In this document: positions 11,922-26,904 of the stretch, in pieces
Numbering within the stretch: the first letter of the stretch is position 1
How the letters are laid out: every line of letters begins with the position of its first letter
Assembly (NCBI GenBank): GCA_021323865.1
Contig: JAJPKF010000020.1
Coordinates: 257,673-321,672, forward strand
Source: Pseudomonadota bacterium
GTDB taxonomy: Bacteria; Chloroflexota; UBA5177; JAJPKF01
Direction: 5' to 3'
DNA: 64,000 bases
The notes under the pieces: model-generated
What the model was told of the DNA's origin: nothing
Database searches by the model: none
What the model saw: the letters and a program-made list of their open reading frames with translations, nothing else
Program-made: the position numbers and the translations under genes

Positions 11922-12249
11922 CGGATGACCACTCCTCGAGCCCAGCCCGCTGGCTGAGCTCGAGGAGGTGTCTCCCGGCACATGCCCGCCCAGGATCGCG
12001 GCTGCAGGGCCTGGTATGAATGTCGTGGTTCGAAGCAGTTACGAGGGCGACGTCCAGTGGCCTGGCGAGTCTTAGCAGGTCCGCTCGGATGAGGCTCCCA
12101 GCCGGCAGTAGACACCAGAACCGGGACTTGGGGCCATAGCCGGGACTGGCCTGCTGCTTCCGCCTCCTGGAGGAGAATCGTACTGGTCTCGCCGGACCTG
12201 TTCGATGCCGAGCCTCACCGAACGATATCCATGGAATGGAGACGCATCG

Positions 12250-13050
12250 ATGACGGAATTTCACGACCAAGATCTATCAGGCGCCACCTTTGAGCGCGTG
12301 AACCTCACGGATGCAAGGTTTACCAGAGTTGACTTCAGCGGCGCGGTGATACGTGGCAGCCTGCTGGAAGGAGTCCGGCTTCGTGGGGCCGAGCTGATTG
12401 ACGTGGAGATCAGCGCCGAGCTGCAGAACGTGGTCGTGAATGGCGTCAATATCGCGCCGCTCATCGACGCGGAGTTGAATCGGCGGATGCCCGAGCGGGC
12501 GAAGATGCGCCCCGAAAGTCCTGAGGCGTTTCGGGAGGCGTGGGCCATCCTCGAAGGGTTGTGGGCCGGAACCATTGAGCGTGCCCGTACCTTCCCGGAA
12601 GAGACACTGCATCAGAGCGCGAACGGCGAATGGTCCTTCATCCAAACCCTTCGGCACCTGAACTTTGCCACTGCCGCCTGGGTGGAACGGATGGTCCTCG
12701 GCAACCGCTCTCCCTGGCACCCGCTGGACCTCCCCTGGGACGAGGCTCCGGGTTGGGAGGGCATTCCCTGGGACCGGGAGGCTCGACCTTCCCTCGATGA
12801 GGTGCTGGCGGTCCGCGGTCGACGCCAGGCCACAGTGGCCCGGGTCCTCGCTTCCCTGACGCAAGAGCAGCTTGCCTCCGAGGTGACCCGGACAGAGCCC
12901 GGCTGGCCGCAAGTCGAGACCTTTCCGTTCAAGGAGTGTCTCCTCATCGTGATTAACGAGGAGTGGGAGCACCGACTCTATGCGGAACGCGATCTTACCG
13001 TCCTCGAAAAAGAGGCGCCGGAATCGCGGCGCGCATTCCCCACATCCTGA
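12250..13050 (+). CDS. Fusion protein: N-terminal pentapeptide repeats + C-terminal DinB_2/DUF664-like domain
   Basis: ATG at 12250 preceded by GGAGAC. N-terminus [47 protein letters not shown] (A(D/N)LxG pentapeptides). C-terminus [24 protein letters not shown]...[18 protein letters not shown] is DinB_2-like. Confidence 0.7.
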
Positions 13051-13675: not shown

Positions 13676-15424
13676 ATGGCGGCAGGACTTCGAGTTTCGC
13701 GGCTTCCGATATTCCGCAAGAGAGCGGGGTCGGAACCCGTCCCGTCCGCGGCTCCCCAAATGTCGGCGAAGTCGGTCATTGAACCGCTCGACATCGCGCC
13801 GAACGATCCGCTGCTGGCCTACTTGGTGTCGTCCCCCGGCGCCGTGGACATCCAGCAGTTGGAGCTGGATTCACCCGCCGTACGGTCGATGAAGGCAGCG
13901 GGCATCAAGCTGGCCGTGCCGCTGGTCTCTCAGGGTGAGCTTATCGGCATGCTGAATCTCGGGCAACGAATGAGTGAACAAGAGTACTCATCCGACGATC
14001 GCGCATTGCTGAACAATCTCGCTGCTCAAGCCACCCCGGCATTGCGAGTGGCCCAGCTGGTTCGCCAGCAACAGGCGGAAGCCAAGGAGCGGCAGCGCAT
14101 CGAACAGGAGCTACAAGTCGCGCGGCTCATCCAGCATACGCTCCTTCCCAAGAACCTCCCACAGGTTGAGGGTTGGCACGTCGCAGCGCACTACCAGCCC
14201 GCACGGGCCGTCGGCGGTGACTTTTACGATTTCATCGAAATGGAGGATGGTCGGCTGGGGCTCGTCGTCGGAGATGTTACGGACAAGGGAGTTCCCGCCG
14301 CACTGGTCATGGCGACCACTCGCAGCGTGCTGCGAGCAGCGGCGGAATCCATGGCCCGCCCGGGCGAGGTCCTGCGACAAGCCAATAACAAGCTGTGTCC
14401 CGACATTCCAGAAAACATGTTCGTCACCTGTCTGTTTGCCCTCCTCGATCCGGTTGAAGGTCGGCTCGTCTACGCCAACGCCGGCCACGACGCGCCCTAT
14501 CAGCGATCCGAGGCGGGCGTGGTCGAGCTGCGAGCTCGCGGTATGCCGCTCGGTCTCATGCCCGATATGGAGTATGAGGAGCTTGAGACCCAGCTGGCTC
14601 CGGGCGATGCCATCCTCTTCTACAGCGATGGGTTGGTTGAAGCACACAACTCAAACCGGGAAATGTTCAGCTTTCCGCGGTTGCGCGAGCTGCTTGCTCG
14701 GCACGTCATGTCGACGCCGGACGAGCTCGTTGACTTCCTGCTCGACAACCTGGCTCGCTTCACCGGACGTGAATGGGATCAGGAAGACGACATCACCTTG
14801 GTCACGCTCCAGCGCGTGCACAATGTCGCTCGCCACACGGCATTTGCCACGAGCATGCTGGAGGAGGTCGAACCGCCTCCGAGCGACGAGACCCAGGCTG
14901 CATATGGCGAGGAGACGCCTGGCACGGACGCAAGCGGCAAGGCGAGTTCCACAGATGCTCCGATGTCTGCCGTTCGACCCGCCGACGACGGGGCGATCTG
15001 GGACAGGATCACAAAGTTCGAAATCGCCAGCCGGCCAGGAAATGAGCGCGTCGCAATTGAGCGAGTGCGCGAGGCGTTAAGAAGCGTCGATCTTCCGGCC
15101 CGAACATGTGAGCGTTTGGAGACGGCGGTAGGCGAGGCGACGATGAATGCCATGGAGCACGGCAACAAGTATCAGTCCGATGTCACCGTCGTCATTTGCG
15201 TCGAGCTTTCTCCCCGAGCGATTCGGATCGGAGTTACAGACCAGGGGGAACCGATCCCCCTCGAGACTGAGGAGCCTGACCTAGAGCTGAAGCTGGCCGG
15301 GATGCAGAGCCCCCGCGGCTGGGGCATGTTTCTCATCAAAAACATGGTGGACGACATGCAGGTGGTGGACGATGCGGTCGGCCATACCCTGCAGCTGACT
15401 GTTCACCGGGAAAGGAGCCACTGA
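13676..15424 (+). CDS. Fused partner-switching regulator: partial GAF + PP2C (SpoIIE/RsbU-type) phosphatase + C-terminal RsbW/SpoIIAB-like HATPase (anti-sigma-factor-type Ser kinase) domain; real start possibly ~13760 (MSAKSV..)
   Basis: GAF C-terminal half ...GIKLAVPLVSQGELIGMLNLGQR. PP2C motifs LQVARLIQHTLLP, GGDFYDF, GLVVGDVTDKGVPAAL, DAILFYSDGLVEA. HATPase_c ...ETAVGEATMNAMEHGN...VVICVEL...RIGVTDQGEP....GWGMFLIKNMVDDMQV. Confidence 0.75.
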   Translation: MAAGLRVSRLPIFRKRAGSEPVPSAAPQMSAKSVIEPLDIAPNDPLLAYLVSSPGAVDIQQLELDSPAVRSMKAAGIKLAVPLVSQGELIGMLNLGQRMSEQEYSSDDRALLNNLAAQATPALRVAQLVRQQQAEAKERQRIEQELQVARLIQHTLLPKNLPQVEGWHVAAHYQPARAVGGDFYDFIEMEDGRLGLVVGDVTDKGVPAALVMATTRSVLRAAAESMARPGEVLRQANNKLCPDIPENMFVTCLFALLDPVEGRLVYANAGHDAPYQRSEAGVVELRARGMPLGLMPDMEYEELETQLAPGDAILFYSDGLVEAHNSNREMFSFPRLRELLARHVMSTPDELVDFLLDNLARFTGREWDQEDDITLVTLQRVHNVARHTAFATSMLEEVEPPPSDETQAAYGEETPGTDASGKASSTDAPMSAVRPADDGAIWDRITKFEIASRPGNERVAIERVREALRSVDLPARTCERLETAVGEATMNAMEHGNKYQSDVTVVICVELSPRAIRIGVTDQGEPIPLETEEPDLELKLAGMQSPRGWGMFLIKNMVDDMQVVDDAVGHTLQLTVHRERSH

Positions 15425-15786
15425 TGGCTAATGAGCCTCTTGAAGTAACGGTTCGCCGGCTCCCGGCCCTGACGGTTCTGGACCTCGAGGGAGAGATCAA
15501 CGGCTTGGCCGAGTCACGACTCAATCACGCTTACGCAGACGCGGAGGGTGCAGGGCCACGGACCGTATTGCTCAATTTTTCGGGCGTGGACTATATCAAC
15601 AGTACCGGCATCGCCCTGATCGTCAGCCTGCTCGGACGCGCACGAGCGAGTGGTCGCGAGCTGCGCGCCTGTGGCCTCAGCGAGCACTATGTCGAGATTT
15701 TCAACATCACCCGGCTGGCCGACTTCATGTCCGTGTTTCCGAATGAGGAAGCAGCAGTCAGTGAGGCTGCTCTGGGCGCCGGATAG
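15424..15786 (+). CDS. STAS-domain anti-sigma-factor antagonist (SpoIIAA/RsbV-like)
   Basis: LTVLDLEGEINGLAESRLNHAY...VLLNFSGVDYINSTGIALIVSL...RELRACGLSEHYVEIFNITRL is the STAS fold with its phosphorylatable Ser/Thr region. ATGA overlap with the upstream gene. Confidence 0.8.
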   Translation: MANEPLEVTVRRLPALTVLDLEGEINGLAESRLNHAYADAEGAGPRTVLLNFSGVDYINSTGIALIVSLLGRARASGRELRACGLSEHYVEIFNITRLADFMSVFPNEEAAVSEAALGAG

Positions 15787-15848: not shown

Positions 15849-16193
15849 ATGGACCAAACACAGACGTTCGGCGTCCGGGCAACTGAGGGTGCAGCGGTCA
15901 TCGACATCACCGGCGAACTCAATGCCTCGAGCGACCCCGCACTTTCCGATGCCTATGCCCAGGCGTCCGAGCTGAGCGGGCTGATCCTCCTCAACTTCGC
16001 GGGTCTCGAGTACATGAATAGCTCGGGCATTGGCCTCCTCGTTACGCTGCTCATTCGGGCCAATCGGCAGAAGAAGCGCCTCGCGATCTGCGGCCTGTCT
16101 GACCACTACCGGCATATCTTCCAGATCACGAAGCTCGACGATGCGATGAAGATCTATGAAACCGAAGCGGACGCGTTAGGGAGCGATCGATAG
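15849..16193 (+). CDS. Second STAS-domain anti-sigma-factor antagonist
   Basis: AAVIDITGELNASSD...LILLNFAGLEYMNSSGIGLLVTL...KRLAICGLSDHYRHIFQITKL; paralog of 15424-15786. Confidence 0.8.
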   Translation: MDQTQTFGVRATEGAAVIDITGELNASSDPALSDAYAQASELSGLILLNFAGLEYMNSSGIGLLVTLLIRANRQKKRLAICGLSDHYRHIFQITKLDDAMKIYETEADALGSDR

Positions 16194-16236: not shown

Positions 16237-17013
16237 ATGACCGAAAGCCGAGAGCAAAGAGCCTCGCAGATACCTCGTGACGCGGCCAACTGGGCGACAC
16301 AAACTGATGCCGTCAGGCTGTCGGCGGTCCCAACCGGGGCCCGGAATCTCAACGTAGAAGGGAAGCAGGCAGTCGGTCCACTTCAGGGCTTCGGACCAAT
16401 GTGGCAAAAGACCTACCGTGTCCGTCTCCAGGGAAGCGACGCCACGCCCAAGGATGTCATCGCGGCCTGGAAGGAGAACTTCCCCAAATTCTGGCCGCCG
16501 GGCAACACGTTCTATGCGCCGCTCACCGGCATTGCTCCAGGAGAGGCGGCCTTGATCAACTCCTCACTGCCTGGAGGAATGCCGCTCTCGACGGGGGTGA
16601 TGGTGCTCTACGCGGACGATGAGTCATTCACCCTGATGACCACCCAGGGCCATCCCTTCTCCGGTTGGGTGACCTTCAGCGCGACCGTCGAGTCGGAGGG
16701 AGGTATGACGTGCACCGTGGCCCAAGCGCAGGTGCTGATGCGCGCCAATGACCCACTTTATGCGGTTGGCATGCGGTTCGGCGGCCATAAGCAAGAGGAC
16801 CGCATCTGGGAGTGGACGCTGGCCTCCGTAGCGAAGCACTTCGGCGTCGAAGCGCAGGTCGACACCAATTGCCAGTGTGTCGACCGGAGGCCCCAGTGGA
16901 GGCGGGCGGGAAACATCTGGTACAACGCCGGAATTCGGTCGGGCATGTACGTGATGACGACGCCCGTGCGCTTCGTCGCGCGGCCATTCTCCCGTCCTCG
17001 CACGGGCGCATAG
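16237..17013 (+). CDS. Hypothetical soluble protein (no family recognised)
   Basis: 258-codon ORF with coding-like codon usage and a GGAGGATAACC RBS-like sequence upstream. No motif I can name. Confidence 0.5.
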   Translation: MTESREQRASQIPRDAANWATQTDAVRLSAVPTGARNLNVEGKQAVGPLQGFGPMWQKTYRVRLQGSDATPKDVIAAWKENFPKFWPPGNTFYAPLTGIAPGEAALINSSLPGGMPLSTGVMVLYADDESFTLMTTQGHPFSGWVTFSATVESEGGMTCTVAQAQVLMRANDPLYAVGMRFGGHKQEDRIWEWTLASVAKHFGVEAQVDTNCQCVDRRPQWRRAGNIWYNAGIRSGMYVMTTPVRFVARPFSRPRTGA

Positions 17014-18678: not shown

Positions 18679-19923
18679 ATGAGCACTCGGAGCGTATCGA
18701 CTGCTGACCTGTCGCCGCGGACGGCTCGAATCGCCCAGATTGTGTGCCTTGTGTTGATCGCCGGAGGGGTCGCCCTGCTCGTGGCTGCCCTCGTCTGGAT
18801 GTGGCCTGGCATGGTCCACCCATGCGCACGGCTTACGACGTGTCAGCAATACCAGCTTGACTCGGCATCGGCCCAATTCCTGAGCCGGCACGACATCAGC
18901 CTCAGCGCTTATGCAACCGGCCTTGCCTTCCTCCTGATCCTCACCACGCTCGTATGGTACGCGCTGGCGGCTTTGATCCTCTGGAAGCGGCCCGGAGACC
19001 GGGGCGCAATCGTGGCGGCCTTTTTCCTTGCCCTGTTTCCTCAGCTCCCGCTTGGCACAATTACCAACTGGGATGCTGGAGCCGACGCCTCTATTGGGCT
19101 GGTAGCGCTGATCATCTTCGGTCTCCTGTTTCCGGACGGTCACTTCAAGCCCCGATGGACCCGGTGGTGGGCACTCGGGGTCTTCGTCATGCTTGTGGCC
19201 ATTTCATTTACTCCAGGTTCCAGCAGCGGGAACGGGAACTTCCTGTGGGTCGTCCCCGTCCTTGTGCTTCCCGCCGCCGTGGTCGGGACGCAGATTTACC
19301 GGTATCGCAAGTTGTCGACGTGGTCTGAGCGTCAACGCTCGAAGTGGGCGTTCTTCGGCATTATTTCAGGGATTCTGGGTATCATCCTCGTCTTTGTTAC
19401 CGGCACGATCACCCAGCCTTCGACCACGGCCGGAATGGGCGGCGGCGACCTGTCGGGACTCTGGGTCAGCGCCGGAATCGTTATCTTTCCGCTCGCCATT
19501 CCCGTCTCGATCACCATCGCGCTGCTTCGGAGCAACCTATGGGACATTGACCACATCATCAGTCGGGCTCTGGCCTACGCCGTCTTGAGCGCGGTCATCG
19601 TGGGGGCGTACATCGGTGGCGTTGTCGGCCTCCAGTCCCTCTTCGCGCTGTTCGCCCACAACGGCTCGCCGGCGGCCATCGCCCTATCGACGCTCGCAAT
19701 CGTGGCACTCTTCGGCCCAATGCTCAGACGCATCCAGCGCATTGTGGACCGAAGGTTCTATCGGAGCCGGTATGACGCCGCCCGCACGGTTGCCACCTTC
19801 GGCGAGCGGCTGCGTGACCAGGTCGATCTGGGCCAGCTTTCCTCCGGCTTGACCGCCGTTGTCCATGAGGCCCTTCATCCGGAGCATGTATCGTTGTGGC
19901 TCCGAGAGATGAGGGAAGGGTGA
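18679..19923 (+). CDS. Paralog P2 of the membrane-protein array
   Basis: CARLTTCQQYQLDSASAQFL..., RPGDRGA, FPDGHFKPRWTRW, YRYRKLSTWSERQRSKWA, LRSNLWDIDHIISRALAYAVLSAVIVGAYIGGVVGLQSLFALFAHNGSP, DRRFYRSRYDAARTVATFGERLRDQVDLGQLSSGLTAVVHEALHPEHVSLWLREMREG. Confidence 0.8.
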   Translation: MSTRSVSTADLSPRTARIAQIVCLVLIAGGVALLVAALVWMWPGMVHPCARLTTCQQYQLDSASAQFLSRHDISLSAYATGLAFLLILTTLVWYALAALILWKRPGDRGAIVAAFFLALFPQLPLGTITNWDAGADASIGLVALIIFGLLFPDGHFKPRWTRWWALGVFVMLVAISFTPGSSSGNGNFLWVVPVLVLPAAVVGTQIYRYRKLSTWSERQRSKWAFFGIISGILGIILVFVTGTITQPSTTAGMGGGDLSGLWVSAGIVIFPLAIPVSITIALLRSNLWDIDHIISRALAYAVLSAVIVGAYIGGVVGLQSLFALFAHNGSPAAIALSTLAIVALFGPMLRRIQRIVDRRFYRSRYDAARTVATFGERLRDQVDLGQLSSGLTAVVHEALHPEHVSLWLREMREG

Positions 19924-21113
19924 CGGACAGGCAGAAGATATTCGCACTCCGCGCCGTCTGGTCCGCGGTCGCCATCGGGGTTTCAGTCGTCTGGGCTCAA
20001 GCCTTCACCGCCGGCATCGGCCGACTAATGTCGGTGTGTCATGTCGCCTCCGCATGCTCGAGCTATCAGCTCGATGGCCCGGCGTCCCGTGTGCTTACGG
20101 ACCATGGCATCCCGCTCGCCCTCTATGCCGGCATCACGGCTGTAGTCACAGTCGGAGCCTGGCTGGTCTGGTTTGGGCTGGGGGTCCTGCTGGTCTGGAG
20201 GAGACCGCGGGATCGCGGAGCCTACATCTCGGCGCTGTTCCTTGCCGTCTTTCCCCTGATGTTCGCGTCGCTTTGGGCGGCGACGACGGCGCAAACGAAG
20301 CTCTTCTCCGGAATCGCCATCTTCTCGCTGATTCCACTCCTGCTGCTGTTTCCGAACGGCCGGTTCGTCCCGCGCTGGACCTGGGTATTCCTCACCTTCG
20401 TTTCGATCCTGGTGGCCTACGGTCAACTGACGAGGGGGCACTTGTTGCACAAGGCCCTCGGCCCGTTCGGAGCCGTCATTGTCCTCCTGATTGCGATGGG
20501 CCTGCAGATTCATCGATTTCGCTCCATATCATCGTGGCGGGAGCGCCAGCAGACGAAGTGGGCCACACTGGGGCTCTGTGCCTGCGTCATCGGCTTCGCC
20601 GCGACGCTGCTGCCCATACTCATCGGCAAGGTCGCTACGAATTCGCTCTACTCAGACTTCGTCGACATCCTTCTCGCCCTCACCACATCGGCCATTCCCA
20701 TCACCTTAGCGATCGCCGTCCTGAGGAGCGGGCTCTGGGACGTTGACCACATCATCAGTCGGGCTCTGGCCTACGCCGTCTTGAGCGCGGTCATCGTGGG
20801 GGCGTACATCGGTGGCGTTGTCGGCCTCCAGTCCCTCTTCGCGTTATTCGTGCACAATGGCTCTCCGCCGGCGATCGCCCTGTCGACACTCGCCATCGTC
20901 GCTTCGTTTGGTCCACTCCGGAGACGGATCCAGCACGTCGTTGACCGGCGCTTCTACCGAAGCCGGTACGATGCCTCGCTCACATTGGCCGCCTTCGGCA
21001 AGCGGCTTCGGGATCAGGTCGATCTCGGAGAGCTCTCTCATGACCTGACGGGTGTTGTTCACGAGACCCTGCACCCTGAGCACGTTTCGCTGCGGCTGCG
21101 AGCTCCAGGATGA
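19920..21113 (+). CDS. Paralog P3 of the membrane-protein array (GTG start overlapping the P2 stop, GTGA)
   Basis: VTDRQKIFALRAV...SVCHVASACSSYQLDGPASRVL..., RPRDRGA, FPNGRFVPRWTW, HRFRSISSWRERQQTKWA, LRSGLWDVDHIISRALAYAVLSAVIVGAYIGGVVGLQSLFALFVHNGSP, DRRFYRSRYDASLTLAAFGKRLRDQVDLGELSHDLTGVVHETLHPEHVSLRLR. Confidence 0.8.
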   Translation: MTDRQKIFALRAVWSAVAIGVSVVWAQAFTAGIGRLMSVCHVASACSSYQLDGPASRVLTDHGIPLALYAGITAVVTVGAWLVWFGLGVLLVWRRPRDRGAYISALFLAVFPLMFASLWAATTAQTKLFSGIAIFSLIPLLLLFPNGRFVPRWTWVFLTFVSILVAYGQLTRGHLLHKALGPFGAVIVLLIAMGLQIHRFRSISSWRERQQTKWATLGLCACVIGFAATLLPILIGKVATNSLYSDFVDILLALTTSAIPITLAIAVLRSGLWDVDHIISRALAYAVLSAVIVGAYIGGVVGLQSLFALFVHNGSPPAIALSTLAIVASFGPLRRRIQHVVDRRFYRSRYDASLTLAAFGKRLRDQVDLGELSHDLTGVVHETLHPEHVSLRLRAPG

Positions 21114-22282
21114 GAGCGACAGTCGAAGCTGTCTTGCGCCGGCACTCGCGGCTGCTGGCCCGGTTGGTATGGGTCGCACTGACCGCGATCGTTCTAGCCG
21201 TCTTCGTCTCGCAAATTCCGGAGGAGTGGAGCTCCCTCGCGACCGTCTGCCGCGGAGCGGCTGCCTGTGCGAATCGGGGCGGTCTCGACGCGTCGGCGGC
21301 TCACACCCTCATCCGACACGGCATTTCCCTACCGGTCTTTGCGTCGCTCATCGTCATGTTCTCGACCACCGTGCTCGCGATATGGGTCCTCCTGGGTGGC
21401 CTCATCGTGTGGCTCAAGCCCGACGATCGAGGAGCCCTGGTCGCTGCTTACTTTCTGGCCGTCTTTCCCCTGTTGCTCGATTCACAGATCCCGCTCGCCG
21501 TCACCTTCACGGCCCTGATTCTCTTTGGCCTGCTGTTTCCTGACGGACACTTCCAGCCTGGGTGGGCGAGATGGCTGGCTGCGGCCGCGCTTGTCGGCGC
21601 CGCCGCTTCCCCATTTGCCGGTGCCCCCGCCGGCATCGCTTCTCTGGTCCTGCTTCTGGCAGCGATCCCGCTCCAAATCTACCGCTTTCGGAAGGTGTCG
21701 ACCTGGGAGCAACGCCAGCAAACCAAGTGGGCCGTCTTCGGGCTAACCGCGACCGTGCTCGGCTTCATTGTGCTGCTGCCGATCTTCAAATTCGGAGCCG
21801 GCTCCCTGGGCGGCGTACTTCTCCAGAACCTCGGCTTCATTACCGTTATCACGATAATGCCGGTCTCCATGGCCCTGTCCGTGCTTCGGAACCGCCTGTG
21901 GGATATCGACCGGATCATCAGCCGCGCCCTGGGCTATGCCCTCCTGAGCGCGGTCACCGTGGGCGCATACGTCGGAGGTGTCGTCGGCTTCCAGTCACTC
22001 TTTGGGCTGTTCGCTCACGACGGCTCCCCTGTTGCCATTGCCCTGTCCACCCTGGCAATTGTGGCGCTGTTTGGCCCCCTGCGCAGACGCATCCAGCAAA
22101 TTGTCGATCGACGGTTCTATCGAAGTAGATACGATGCGTCCCGCACACTCGCCACTTTCGGCGAGCGGCTGCGTGACCAGGTCGATCTGGGCCAGCTTTC
22201 CTCCGGCTTGACCGCCGTCGTCCATGAGGCCCTTCATCCGGAGCATGTATCGTTGTGGCTCCGAGAGATGAGGGAAGGGTGA
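21110..22282 (+). CDS. Paralog P4 of the membrane-protein array (ATGA overlap with P3)
   Basis: TVCRGAAACANRGGLDASAAHTL, KPDDRGA, FPDGHFQPGWARW, YRFRKVSTWEQRQQTKWA, LRNRLWDIDRIISRALGYALLSAV, DRRFYRSRYDASRTLATFGERLRDQVDLGQLSSGLTAVVHEALHPEHVSLWLREMREG (3' end nearly identical to P2 at DNA level). Confidence 0.8.
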   Translation: MRATVEAVLRRHSRLLARLVWVALTAIVLAVFVSQIPEEWSSLATVCRGAAACANRGGLDASAAHTLIRHGISLPVFASLIVMFSTTVLAIWVLLGGLIVWLKPDDRGALVAAYFLAVFPLLLDSQIPLAVTFTALILFGLLFPDGHFQPGWARWLAAAALVGAAASPFAGAPAGIASLVLLLAAIPLQIYRFRKVSTWEQRQQTKWAVFGLTATVLGFIVLLPIFKFGAGSLGGVLLQNLGFITVITIMPVSMALSVLRNRLWDIDRIISRALGYALLSAVTVGAYVGGVVGFQSLFGLFAHDGSPVAIALSTLAIVALFGPLRRRIQQIVDRRFYRSRYDASRTLATFGERLRDQVDLGQLSSGLTAVVHEALHPEHVSLWLREMREG

Positions 22283-22411
22283 CGGACACGCAAAAGATAT
22301 TCGCACGCCGTGCCGAGCACCTACATGGGGAACTGGACAACGACCGGCTGTCCAAGGAGCTCTGGTCTGGGCCTTGCACCCCGCGTCAGTCTCCATCACG
22401 TTGAGGGAGCC

Positions 22412-26226: not shown

Positions 26227-26682
26227 GTGGTACGAGCGTTTCGAGTCGTCTGGGCGTCACTCATCTGGTTGTTTATGATCATGATTCCGATTCAGTTCTA
26301 CCTGGCGGGCCACGGAGCAATGGAAGGAGCACATGCCGCCGACAAAGGGATCAGGCCCATGAAGACTGGGTGGGACCCGCATGCCTCATTCGGTACGATC
26401 ATGCTGCTGGTGTCGCTTCTGGTGCTCCTGGCTGCTCTCCCCGCCCGTCCGACACGCCGGCTTCTGGGCATGAGCGTAGCTCTATTCGTCTTCATGGTCA
26501 TCCAGTTCGTGCTGCCCTTCTTCAACGATTCGGCCGGCACTCGTTGGGTCGCTGCCTTTCACGGCGTCAACGCATTGATCGTTACCGGCCTGGCAATGGG
26601 TCTCATCATCCGGACACGACCCTACTGGCCATTCACGAAGTCCGAGGCTGCAGAGGCGGAGGCCGGCGCTGCCATGACATGA
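26227..26682 (+). CDS. Small integral membrane protein (4 predicted helices), hypothetical
   Basis: AGGAGGAGAACAGGTG Shine-Dalgarno. ASLIWLFMIMIPIQFYLAG; IMLLVSLLVLLAAL; VALFVFMVIQFVLPFF; ALIVTGLAMGLII. Confidence 0.55.
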   Translation: MVRAFRVVWASLIWLFMIMIPIQFYLAGHGAMEGAHAADKGIRPMKTGWDPHASFGTIMLLVSLLVLLAALPARPTRRLLGMSVALFVFMVIQFVLPFFNDSAGTRWVAAFHGVNALIVTGLAMGLIIRTRPYWPFTKSEAAEAEAGAAMT

Positions 26683-26904
26683 AGTGAGTTCGGTTGGGCA
26701 TCACTCATTCAGCCGCACCTTCAAAGACCGGGCATGAGGGCCAATCCGGAAAGTTGTCAGGCGAGTTGTGGCCCAACCGCCACCCGAACGAGCATCTCCG
26801 GGATATTCTGTCCGGCCAACGTGACTGCACGAGGAGGTGGGACGTCTAGCGTTGGTCTCCGATCGGTGCGGGAGCCAGGTTGCCCTCAGCCTCGCGCATT
26901 GCGA

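Follow-up and report, generated by a model that had tools for sequence, protein, structure and literature searches.

Gene-conversion-like tracts between tandem paralogs of an unnamed bacterial membrane protein family

The sequence analysed here, a 64-kb stretch of DNA referred to as the window, carries an array of seven tandem paralogs in which two short patches of perfect or near-perfect identity link genes that are otherwise saturated at silent sites. Gene conversion between members of the array, or a patch recombination equivalent to it, is well supported as the origin of both, with a probability which we put at about 0.8, and would represent a new example of a known process. This reading should be taken with the caution that a single genome sequence stands behind it and that the recombination may have been either non-reciprocal or a double crossover. 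No exact repeats of 30 nt or longer occur within the window other than those of the two tracts.

The seven genes, P1-P7, all lie on the plus strand and are old tandem paralogs which are mostly translationally coupled. They comprise P1 (17340-18536, 398 aa), P2 (18679-19923, 414 aa), P3 (19920-21113, 397 aa from a GTG at 19920, the start also chosen by the gene caller in the JGI contig L005), P4 (21110-22282, 390 aa), P5 (22310-23650 as an ORF from GTG 22310, the true start by alignment being probably ATG 22412), P6 (23647-24846, 399 aa) and P7 (24843-26111, 422 aa); the nearest counterparts of P6 and P7 are A2 (83% aa identity) and A3 (85%), both in the small array L001. Each of the seven is a full-length ORF with its own start, and stop/start overlaps are found at the P2/P3 (GTGA), P3/P4 (ATGA), P5/P6 and P6/P7 junctions. 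The spacers that precede P1, separate P1 from P2 and P4 from P5, and follow P7 share no homology, GC3 is 0.76, and a scan for promoters and terminators gave results at or below shuffle expectation. The genes encode polytopic, all-helical membrane proteins of an unnamed family which is very large (about 37,700 clusters at 50% identity) and has no Pfam or NCBIfam model; searches of Pfam, NCBIfam and PADLOC with the paralogs gave no significant family, a PDB sequence search gave no genuine match, and a Foldseek comparison of the AF2 model (pLDDT 84) with the PDB returned only non-significant 7TM-like matches (E at least 0.2, TM at most 0.37).

The first tract joins P2 and P3. A first-pass annotation had quoted a 99-nt string common to both genes, and this string does occur exactly twice, but at 19549 and 20745; the positions given for it, 19551-19649 and 20744-20842, were off by 1-4 nt, with unequal offsets. 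Extension of the exact match adds two further bases on the left and yields a maximal block of 101 nt, 19547-19647 (plus strand) in P2 and 20743-20843 (plus strand) in P3, so that the copies are close direct repeats with a spacing of 1,196 nt. The block encodes the peptide DHIISRALAYAVLSAVIVGAYIGGVVGLQSLFA, as had been described, and in P2 covers codons ~290-323 within the penultimate long helix (helix 288-325 of the AF2 model). The right-hand flanks diverge just as reported (ctgttcgcc... vs ttattcgtg...), and a dot alignment places two breakpoints, each copy being bordered left and right by diverged sequence. Where the annotation went wrong was in taking the genes to be 70-80% identical otherwise: P2 and P3 share 54% of nucleotides and 45% of amino acids over the whole gene, the nucleotide figure falling to 42% across the 5' two-thirds and reaching ~71% in the 3' third once the tract is left out. 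With a background this much lower than supposed, the block becomes more striking, not less.

Four measures exclude chance as the source of the block. The longest exact run between P2 and P3 outside it is 11 nt, and no other pair of paralogs exceeds 17 nt; at an identity of 0.709 the chance of such a block is 0.709^101 = 8e-16, or 2e-11 when corrected for 21 pairs x 1300 positions. The GENECONV-type check that had been proposed was carried out as a Sawyer/GENECONV-type permutation, in which the block comprises 71 consecutive matching polymorphic sites and the second tract, described below, 41; neither was equalled in any of 2000 permutations, whether the whole gene or the 3' part alone was used, the largest permuted runs being 22 and 36 respectively. 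Among codons specifying the same amino acid in P2 and P3, 33 of 33 are identical inside the block, vs a fraction of 0.38-0.51 in the flanks, and because the identity extends to synonymous sites, selection on the protein offers no explanation for it. The suggestion of recent recombination between array members is supported by this combination of fully identical synonymous sites, two sharp edges and silent sites that are otherwise saturated, while the alternative raised alongside it, a very recent duplication of the whole gene, does not fit a pattern in which identity is far from uniform along the gene. At this segment the five other copies are 59-79% identical to the block, and its similarity to P1 and P4 (76-79%) resembles that of the P2 flanks (76%) and is unlike that of the P3 flanks (69-70%), which weakly suggests that the copying went from P2 to P3.

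The second tract spans a gene boundary. The 3' end of P2, together with its stop and the opening 31 nt of P3 (19798-19954, plus strand), recurs at the P4/P5 junction (22157-22313, plus strand), 2,359 nt away, with 5 mismatches in 157 nt (96.8% identity) and exact runs of 62 and 69 nt. The copy at 19798-19954, probably the donor, takes in 123 nt at the end of P2, the TGA stop and ~31 nt downstream which hold the in-frame GTG start at 19920 and the first codons of P3. The probable recipient at 22157-22313 takes in the corresponding 123 nt of P4, which differ at one synonymous site, then the stop, and then a relic of the 5' end of P3 that is 31 nt long and has four mismatches. The differences are T/C, G/C, G/A, T/G and C/T. 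Identical codons make up 40 of the 41 that specify the same amino acid in the tract, compared with ~0.3-0.5 outside the tracts and between all other pairs. The relic of the P3 start runs in a frame different from that of P5 and closes after 41 codons, and P4/P5 is the sole junction among P2-P7 that lacks a GTGA or ATGA stop-start overlap. A start out of frame at P4/P5 points to the P2/P3 junction as donor, and argues for one-way copying in this tract.

Array copy number among relatives is 3, 4, 7 and at least 9. In L003, an array of nine family members unrelated to the present one, significant tracts of 127, 92, 68 and 68 nt are found in the same region of the gene, and synonymous identity is 0.65-0.85 for the 3' part but 0.44-0.48 for the 5' part; the small arrays L001 (3 copies) and L004 (4 copies) gave no significant tracts. 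Neighbour-joining trees of the N- and C-terminal parts are discordant: bootstrap support for the grouping of P2 with A1 of L001 drops from 1.0 (N-part) to 0.0 (C-part), whereas that for P1-P4 rises from 0.0 to 0.73. Masking of the tracts leaves 67 columns and poor resolution. A tract that is independent of the first and crosses a gene boundary, the tracts of L003 and this discordance between 5' and 3' trees all lend support to recombination. Whether A1 is a clean chimera of a P2 N-part and a P5 C-part, arising by unequal crossover, can be read in two ways, since protein-level trees favour it (P5+A1 at 0.90) but silent-site identity in the C-part favours P2 (0.57 for P2-A1 vs 0.34 for P5-A1). 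Pervasive recent homogenisation of the 3' parts of P1-P4 was also considered and rejected: outside the two tracts their silent sites are at background, as diverged as in any pair, and on this account the window shows two isolated events and not an ongoing process of that kind.

We envisage that a stretch of one copy served as the repair template for another copy ~1.2 kb away, by ectopic homologous recombination of the gene-conversion type in which strand invasion would be followed by copying or heteroduplex repair and by resolution without crossover, and that at least 101 nt of P2 or P3 were replaced. A separate and slightly older event would have placed at the P4/P5 junction a copy of ~157 nt comprising the 3' end of P2, its stop and the first codons of P3. 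The two events fall within the final third of the gene, which starts at the LWDID motif and encodes the last helices and a cytoplasmic tail; no other part is conserved enough for pairing, and the 5' two-thirds have diverged too far to participate. The data show the tracts and their significance, the identity at silent sites, breakpoints on either side, the leftover gene start in the recipient and the recurrence in a second array; we infer the pathway (RecA-type conversion vs a double template switch), the one-way nature of the transfer and the direction taken by the 101-nt event.

The minimal pairing segment of E. coli RecA is ~25 nt. The flanks of the tracts offer no more than 17 nt of exact identity at ~71% overall, which is below this minimum, so that each event must be rare or must use another route. 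An alternative would be double template switching, independent of RecA, in the course of replication, or repair involving copies that lie 1.2-2.4 kb apart; either would leave the same footprint by a different pathway. The arrangement of the copies as close direct repeats (1,196 and 2,359 nt) is in its favour, as is the low identity of the flanks, which disfavours classical RecA pairing; however, the tract edges carry no microhomology-flanked deletions or duplications, and the sequence does not discriminate between pathways. We regard this alternative as rather unlikely. A different objection is that the identity was made or misplaced in assembly or polishing, through collapse of paralogs, chimeric paths or consensus correction. 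The sequence does come from a metagenome assembly, and the region is evidently hard to assemble, since one assembly breaks inside the P2/P4 repeat. That break, however, in the JGI contig L005, falls exactly at the last base which the two copies of the P2/P4 block have in common, as expected of a graph branch at a genuine repeat, and its position at the end of the shared 62-mer implies that both continuations were present in the reads. Up to that point L005 matches the window base for base along 6,540 nt, a stretch that holds the 101-nt tract in P2 as well as in P3, so that two assemblies with different contig ends agree over 6.5 kb; each copy has unique, in-frame sequence on either side, and De Bruijn assemblers join at shared k-mers and do not invent identity within sequence that is ~71% identical. 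The same phenomenon is seen in an independent array from another sample, and a near-identical P2 from run SRR5579884, with one amino acid different, retains both tract peptides. An artefact is therefore very improbable. The identical contig L005 was all that the strain search recovered: a genome-contig scan with P2, metagenome scans with an exact 39-mer of the tract and with the P2 protein, and a look-up of the SRR5579884 variant P0001 yielded no close strain with different tract boundaries.

It could also be asked whether selection holds the nucleotides themselves identical, because the coding sequence contains an RNA structure, a binding site or a recombination signal. Tracts of different arrays do begin near the same LWDID-coding motif, and exact runs of 41-65 nt occur there even between different genomes, although these short runs fit a conserved peptide at a GC3 of 0.76, and the exact tract sequence is absent from L001, L003 and L004. 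Neither an Rfam match nor a fold energy better than that of shuffles (z = +0.54) was found, the identity is confined to two of the seven copies where the other five are 59-79% identical, and the second tract involves another segment of the gene and another partner, all of which makes such an element extremely unlikely. Programmed variation, the deliberate shuffling of segments so that a surface protein varies, as in the cassette systems of pilE/pilS and vlsE or in a DGR target, would account for tandem variable membrane proteins with recombination tracts and for a copy number that ranges over 3, 4, 7 and at least 9 among relatives. Yet all seven ORFs are full length, with their own starts and coupled translation, a silent truncated cassette is missing, the exchanged segments belong to the conserved and not the variable part, and only two events are visible; for a DGR, moreover, the first tract has no differences, the mismatches of the second are not adenine-specific, and no reverse transcriptase domain was found among the neighbours scanned. 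We find this explanation scarcely credible, and gene conversion or an equivalent patch recombination is retained as the preferred reading.

The context of the array deserves comment in its own right. Upstream on the plus strand lies a gene (13676-15424; Pfam, NCBIfam) for an N-terminally incomplete GAF domain followed by a SpoIIE/PP2C phosphatase (Pfam SpoIIE, 2.7e-55) and an RsbW-like kinase (HATPase_c_2, 2.9e-21), and this is followed, also on the plus strand, by two STAS proteins, the first of the anti-anti-sigma type (15424-15786) and a second (15849-16193), and by a conserved 258-aa protein with no family assignment (16237-17013) which in syntenic loci always stands between the STAS genes and the array; a DUF6220 membrane protein (26227-26682, plus strand) closes the array in all of these loci. 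L001 and L004 have the same gene order. With a PPM/PP2C phosphatase, STAS proteins and a HATPase_c_2 kinase encoded together, the domain assignments identify the genes as a putative partner-switching module of the RsbU/SpoIIE-RsbV-RsbW type. No sigma factor or other output of the switch was found among the adjacent genes scanned.

A link between the array and the phosphatase is suggested by a natural fusion protein, P0204, in which the membrane module of the family is joined to GAF-PP2C; its C-terminal half is 60% identical to the upstream phosphatase, and its GAF match (profile positions 1-133) falls at residues 408-547, spanning the family tail. The phosphatase of the window on its own matches GAF positions 35-130 (34.6 bits), and joining the P2 tail to it in silico extends the match to 1-130 (38.8 bits), a gain of only ~4 bits from a tail that alone gives no match. 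Weak collinear matches to PrsK are seen in the membrane paralogs (profile 137-348) and at the N-terminus of the phosphatase (profile 408-470). The conserved tail of the array proteins looks like the missing start of the GAF domain of the phosphatase. One could go further and propose that the array is a repertoire of interchangeable membrane sensors signalling through the single upstream GAF-PP2C-kinase, that each sensor ends with the first helix and strand of a GAF domain and the incomplete GAF of the phosphatase supplies the remainder in trans, and that conversion confined to the 3' adapter third, with the last helices and this GAF stub, keeps the sensors compatible while the 5' parts diversify. 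We consider this larger scheme possible but doubtful, and as distant members of the family occur as singletons in unrelated contexts, away from any phosphatase, the support which gene neighbourhood lends to a split GAF domain is limited. If the scheme were true, the locus would be a variable-sensor/constant-adapter design maintained by recombination.

Gene conversion is a textbook process, and the value of the present case lies in its unusual cleanness, with perfect 101-nt and ~157-nt patches amid saturated silent sites, one of which crosses a gene boundary and leaves a dead start codon behind. It shows that bacterial paralogs with a local identity of only ~70% can undergo conversion, and warns that in trees and orthology calls for this family the 5' and 3' parts should be treated separately. 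The operon context may matter more than the conversion footprint, since the P0204 fusion, by linking the family to GAF-PP2C partner-switching phosphatases, suggests that in Chloroflexota-like soil bacteria several sensors may together form the input to a stress or sigma-factor switch.

Conversion of this kind between bacterial paralogs is established (tufA/tufB; PMC5485169). As with tufA/tufB in Salmonella, the rRNA operons and the duplicated mtrA (PMC5485169, PMC6053082), the tracts described here are continuous, join paralogs of one chromosome, are identical at silent sites and end where homology ends, and, as in concerted evolution, the paralogs of L003 resemble one another locally more closely than they resemble their counterparts elsewhere. 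However, the partners in the window are 54% identical in nucleotides overall and ~71% locally and not nearly identical as in conversion of the tufA/tufB type, the patches measure only 101-157 nt and have not homogenised whole genes, and one of them spans a gene boundary and has damaged the start of the next gene. The antigenic-variation systems pilE/pilS, vlsE and msp2 likewise consist of arrays of related segments with gene-conversion tracts, but the present array has neither silent truncated cassettes nor a single expression site, and it is the constant part that is converted. GAF-regulated PPM phosphatases are known (PMC12143880), and the P0204 fusion and the operon of the window, with its PP2C, RsbW-like kinase and two STAS proteins, resemble membrane-anchored GAF-PP2C phosphatases (SpoIIE/RsbU-type) and TM-GAF histidine kinases of the PrsK type. 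In contrast to these proteins, the sensor module here is a separate gene, multiplied from three to at least nine times, which stops ~35 residues into the GAF profile at the point where the phosphatase begins.

The seven tandem membrane-protein paralogs, all on the + strand, are P1 (17340-18536), P2 (18679-19923), P3 (19920-21113), P4 (21110-22282), P5 (22310-23650), P6 (23647-24846) and P7 (24843-26111); P3 is taken to start at the in-frame GTG at 19920, which overlaps the P2 TGA and was chosen by the gene caller in an identical contig, the ORF list placing it at 19896 instead. The first-pass annotation had reported a 99-nt string shared by P2 and P3, within genes otherwise 70-80% identical, as a gene-conversion footprint. 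The string does occur exactly twice, at 19549 and 20745, and its peptide and diverged right flanks are as described, the coordinates being displaced by 1-4 nt, and exact-match extension lengthened the perfect block to a maximum of 101 nt (19547-19647 and 20743-20843). The background identity had been overestimated: P2 and P3 share 54% of nucleotides and 45% of amino acids overall, and nucleotide identity is 42% over the 5' two-thirds and, with the block left out, 71% over the 3' third. Beyond the block their longest exact match is 11 nt.

A 101-nt run at the local identity of 0.709 has a probability of 8e-16, or 2e-11 once corrected for all pairs and positions. The annotation had also named a GENECONV-type test; in a Sawyer/GENECONV-style analysis, in which the order of polymorphic sites was permuted 2000 times, the 71 consecutive polymorphic sites common to P2 and P3 were never reached (0/2000), the permutation maximum for this pair being 22 over the whole gene and 36 over the conserved 3' part only. 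Everywhere in the family, codons for the same amino acid are identical between paralogs in only ~0.3-0.5 of cases, i.e., silent sites are saturated, whereas inside the block 33/33 are identical, and protein-level selection therefore cannot explain it. The similarity of the tract to P1 and P4 resembles that of the P2 flanks (76%) and not that of the P3 flanks (69-70%), and it is by this one measure that the event would appear to have run from P2 to P3.

A second tract, absent from the first-pass list, matches P2 19798-19954 to P4 22157-22313 with 96.8% identity over 157 nt (62 nt exact, one synonymous mismatch, 69 nt exact and then four mismatches). It covers 41 polymorphic sites, a length reached by 0/2000 permutations, and its codon identity is 40/41. 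The two tracts are the only direct or inverted exact repeats of at least 30 nt in the entire 64-kb window, and among all other pairs of the seven paralogs no exact match exceeds 17 nt. This second tract passes through the TGA stop into the following gene: in the P2/P3 copy the bases past the stop (VTDRQKIFALRA...) are the GTG start and first codons of P3, and their counterparts in the P4/P5 copy (VTDTQKIFARRA...) do not share the reading frame of P5 but lie in one which closes after 41 codons. The P4/P5 junction (window 22279-22313) thus holds an out-of-frame relic of the P3 GTG start and first ~11 codons, carried with the P2 3' end. Within P2-P7, the 4-nt stop/start overlap (GTGA or ATGA) is missing only at the P4-to-P5 junction. 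The P5 ORF has an odd, long N-terminal extension from GTG 22310, and its true start is likely ATG 22412. The simplest reading is that the P2/P3 junction was copied one way onto the P4/P5 junction, replacing the original start region of P5.

The best explanation, to which we assign a probability of about 0.8, is that copies within an old tandem array recombined ectopically on two recent occasions, by events of gene-conversion type which would have been restricted to the sole segment similar enough for pairing. The conversion proposed in the first-pass annotation is supported by the significance of the tracts, their silent-site identity and two-sided edges, and their recurrence in another array; the directional relic is equally an observation, whilst the pathway and its non-reciprocity are what we infer. 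RecA-independent double template switching would leave the same trace in the sequence as conversion, but is improbable. Were the tract a nucleotide-level element, it would be one which has no match in Rfam, folds no better than shuffled sequences (z = +0.54) and is identical in only 2/7 copies, the other five paralogs being 59-79% identical to the 101-nt region.

An assembly artefact could in principle produce such identity, but over 6,540 nt, a stretch that takes in the two copies of the 101-nt block, a JGI contig (3300005532, Ga0070739_10000040, 279,652 bp) does not differ from the window at any base. Its end falls at 22218 in window coordinates, on the last of the 62 nt that P2 and P4 share ahead of their first mismatch, and this is the branch point expected in the assembly graph if both continuations were present in the reads, as for a true repeat. 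Both tract peptides are also retained in a variant of P2 that comes from a separate run, SRR5579884, and has one N-to-S change directly after the tract. A cassette or DGR system accords poorly with an array in which every copy is full-length, the conserved part is the exchanged part and tract mismatches lack adenine specificity; a reverse transcriptase was not found among the scanned neighbours.

The nearest relatives are Chloroflexota MAGs: in L001 and L002 this operon has three paralogs (A1-A3), L004 has four (C1-C4), and L003 (1-11069) is an 11-kb contig composed solely of paralogs, at least nine in tandem (B1-B9). Trees of the 5' two-thirds and of the 3' third, which starts at the LWDID motif, conflict, with bootstrap support: P2 + A1 received 1.0 in the former and 0.0 in the latter, P1-P4 0.0 and 0.73, and P5 + A1 0.0 and 0.90 (protein level). 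A sliding-window comparison puts the switch at this motif, where the 101-nt tract has its left edge. These older exchanges are ancient, since silent-site identity in the 3' parts of P1-P4 outside both tracts is at background (0.31-0.51), against 0.55-0.75 for the counterpart pairs P6/A2 and P7/A3. Despite its protein-level grouping with P5, A1 (L001 3102-4244) has 3' silent sites closer to P2 (0.57) than to P5 (0.34); it may have arisen long ago as a chimera by unequal crossover, or be composed of mosaic patches. L003 has exact tracts of its own (127 nt in B4/B6, 92 nt in B8/B9, 68 nt in B4/B5 and 68 nt in B5/B6), all within the same 3' region as those of the window, with B4/B6, B4/B5, B5/B6 and B4/B8 significant by permutation; together with a silent-site identity of 0.65-0.85 in the 3' part versus 0.44-0.48 in the 5' part, this indicates ongoing 3'-biased homogenisation. 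The same tests found no tracts in the small A and C arrays, thus recombination confined to the 3' third recurs in the larger arrays of the family.

The genes that precede the array on the same strand encode a (partial GAF)-SpoIIE/PP2C-HATPase_c_2 phosphatase (13676-15424), a pair of STAS proteins and a 258-aa protein that is also conserved; DUF6220 follows downstream of the array. L001 and L004 share this order, which represents a partner-switching module, of RsbU/RsbV/RsbW type. The 258-aa protein (16237-17013) is without family assignment (weak DUF1990-like match, E = 0.006), and in L001, L002, L004 and the JGI contig it likewise sits between the STAS pair and the array. L001 and L004 have an FAD-dependent amine-oxidase-like gene between DUF6220 and a BTAD-AAA-TPR regulator, which the window (26683-26904) lacks. 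A single ORF at 12205-13050, joining pentapeptide repeats to a DinB_2 domain, appears unconnected with the array.

The paralogs matched no family in Pfam, NCBIfam or PADLOC and no PDB entry by sequence, and belong to a membrane family of 37,687 clusters (50% identity, E <= 0.001) without a Pfam or NCBIfam model. An AlphaFold2 model of P2 (74-sequence alignment, pLDDT 84, pTM 0.76, low confidence over the final 15 residues) predicts an all-helical polytopic membrane protein whose long helix 288-325 corresponds to the 101-nt tract; a Foldseek search of this model against the PDB gave nothing significant. Several family entries of 900-1450 aa hold two or three complete copies per ORF; these are fusions of tandem paralogs or else gene calls with read-through.

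One 816-aa member, P0204, is a natural fusion of membrane module and phosphatase: residues 29-438 align with full-length P2 (36% identity), residues 460-802 share 60% identity with residues 36-380 of the window phosphatase, and a complete Pfam GAF at 408-547 begins inside the conserved tail of the membrane family. By itself the window phosphatase matches the GAF profile from position 35 to 130; an in silico fusion with the P2 tail lengthens the match to 1-130, with a gain of only ~4 bits. The conserved tails of P1-P7 (e.g., 19798-19920) appear to correspond to GAF positions ~1-34, and the phosphatase begins at ~35. Weak, collinear matches to PrsK, a TM-GAF histidine kinase, place the paralogs at profile positions 137-348 and the phosphatase N-terminus at 408-470. 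This alignment evidence suggests the hypothesis that each paralog is a sensor module, detached and multiplied, and that its tail represents the start which the phosphatase GAF lacks, the domain perhaps being completed in trans. It should be considered with caution, as the match improves by few bits and the more distant members of the family occur singly, at loci well away from phosphatase genes. That a repertoire of variable sensors with constant adapters feeds one split-GAF phosphatase, conversion keeping the adapters compatible, is doubtful.

GAF-regulated PPM phosphatases are known (PMC12143880), and conversion among paralogous genes of bacteria is well established (PMC5485169, PMC6053082). 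The P2/P3 and P2/P4 tracts represent this known process, and stand out because the partners have so little identity in the background and because one tract crosses a gene boundary.
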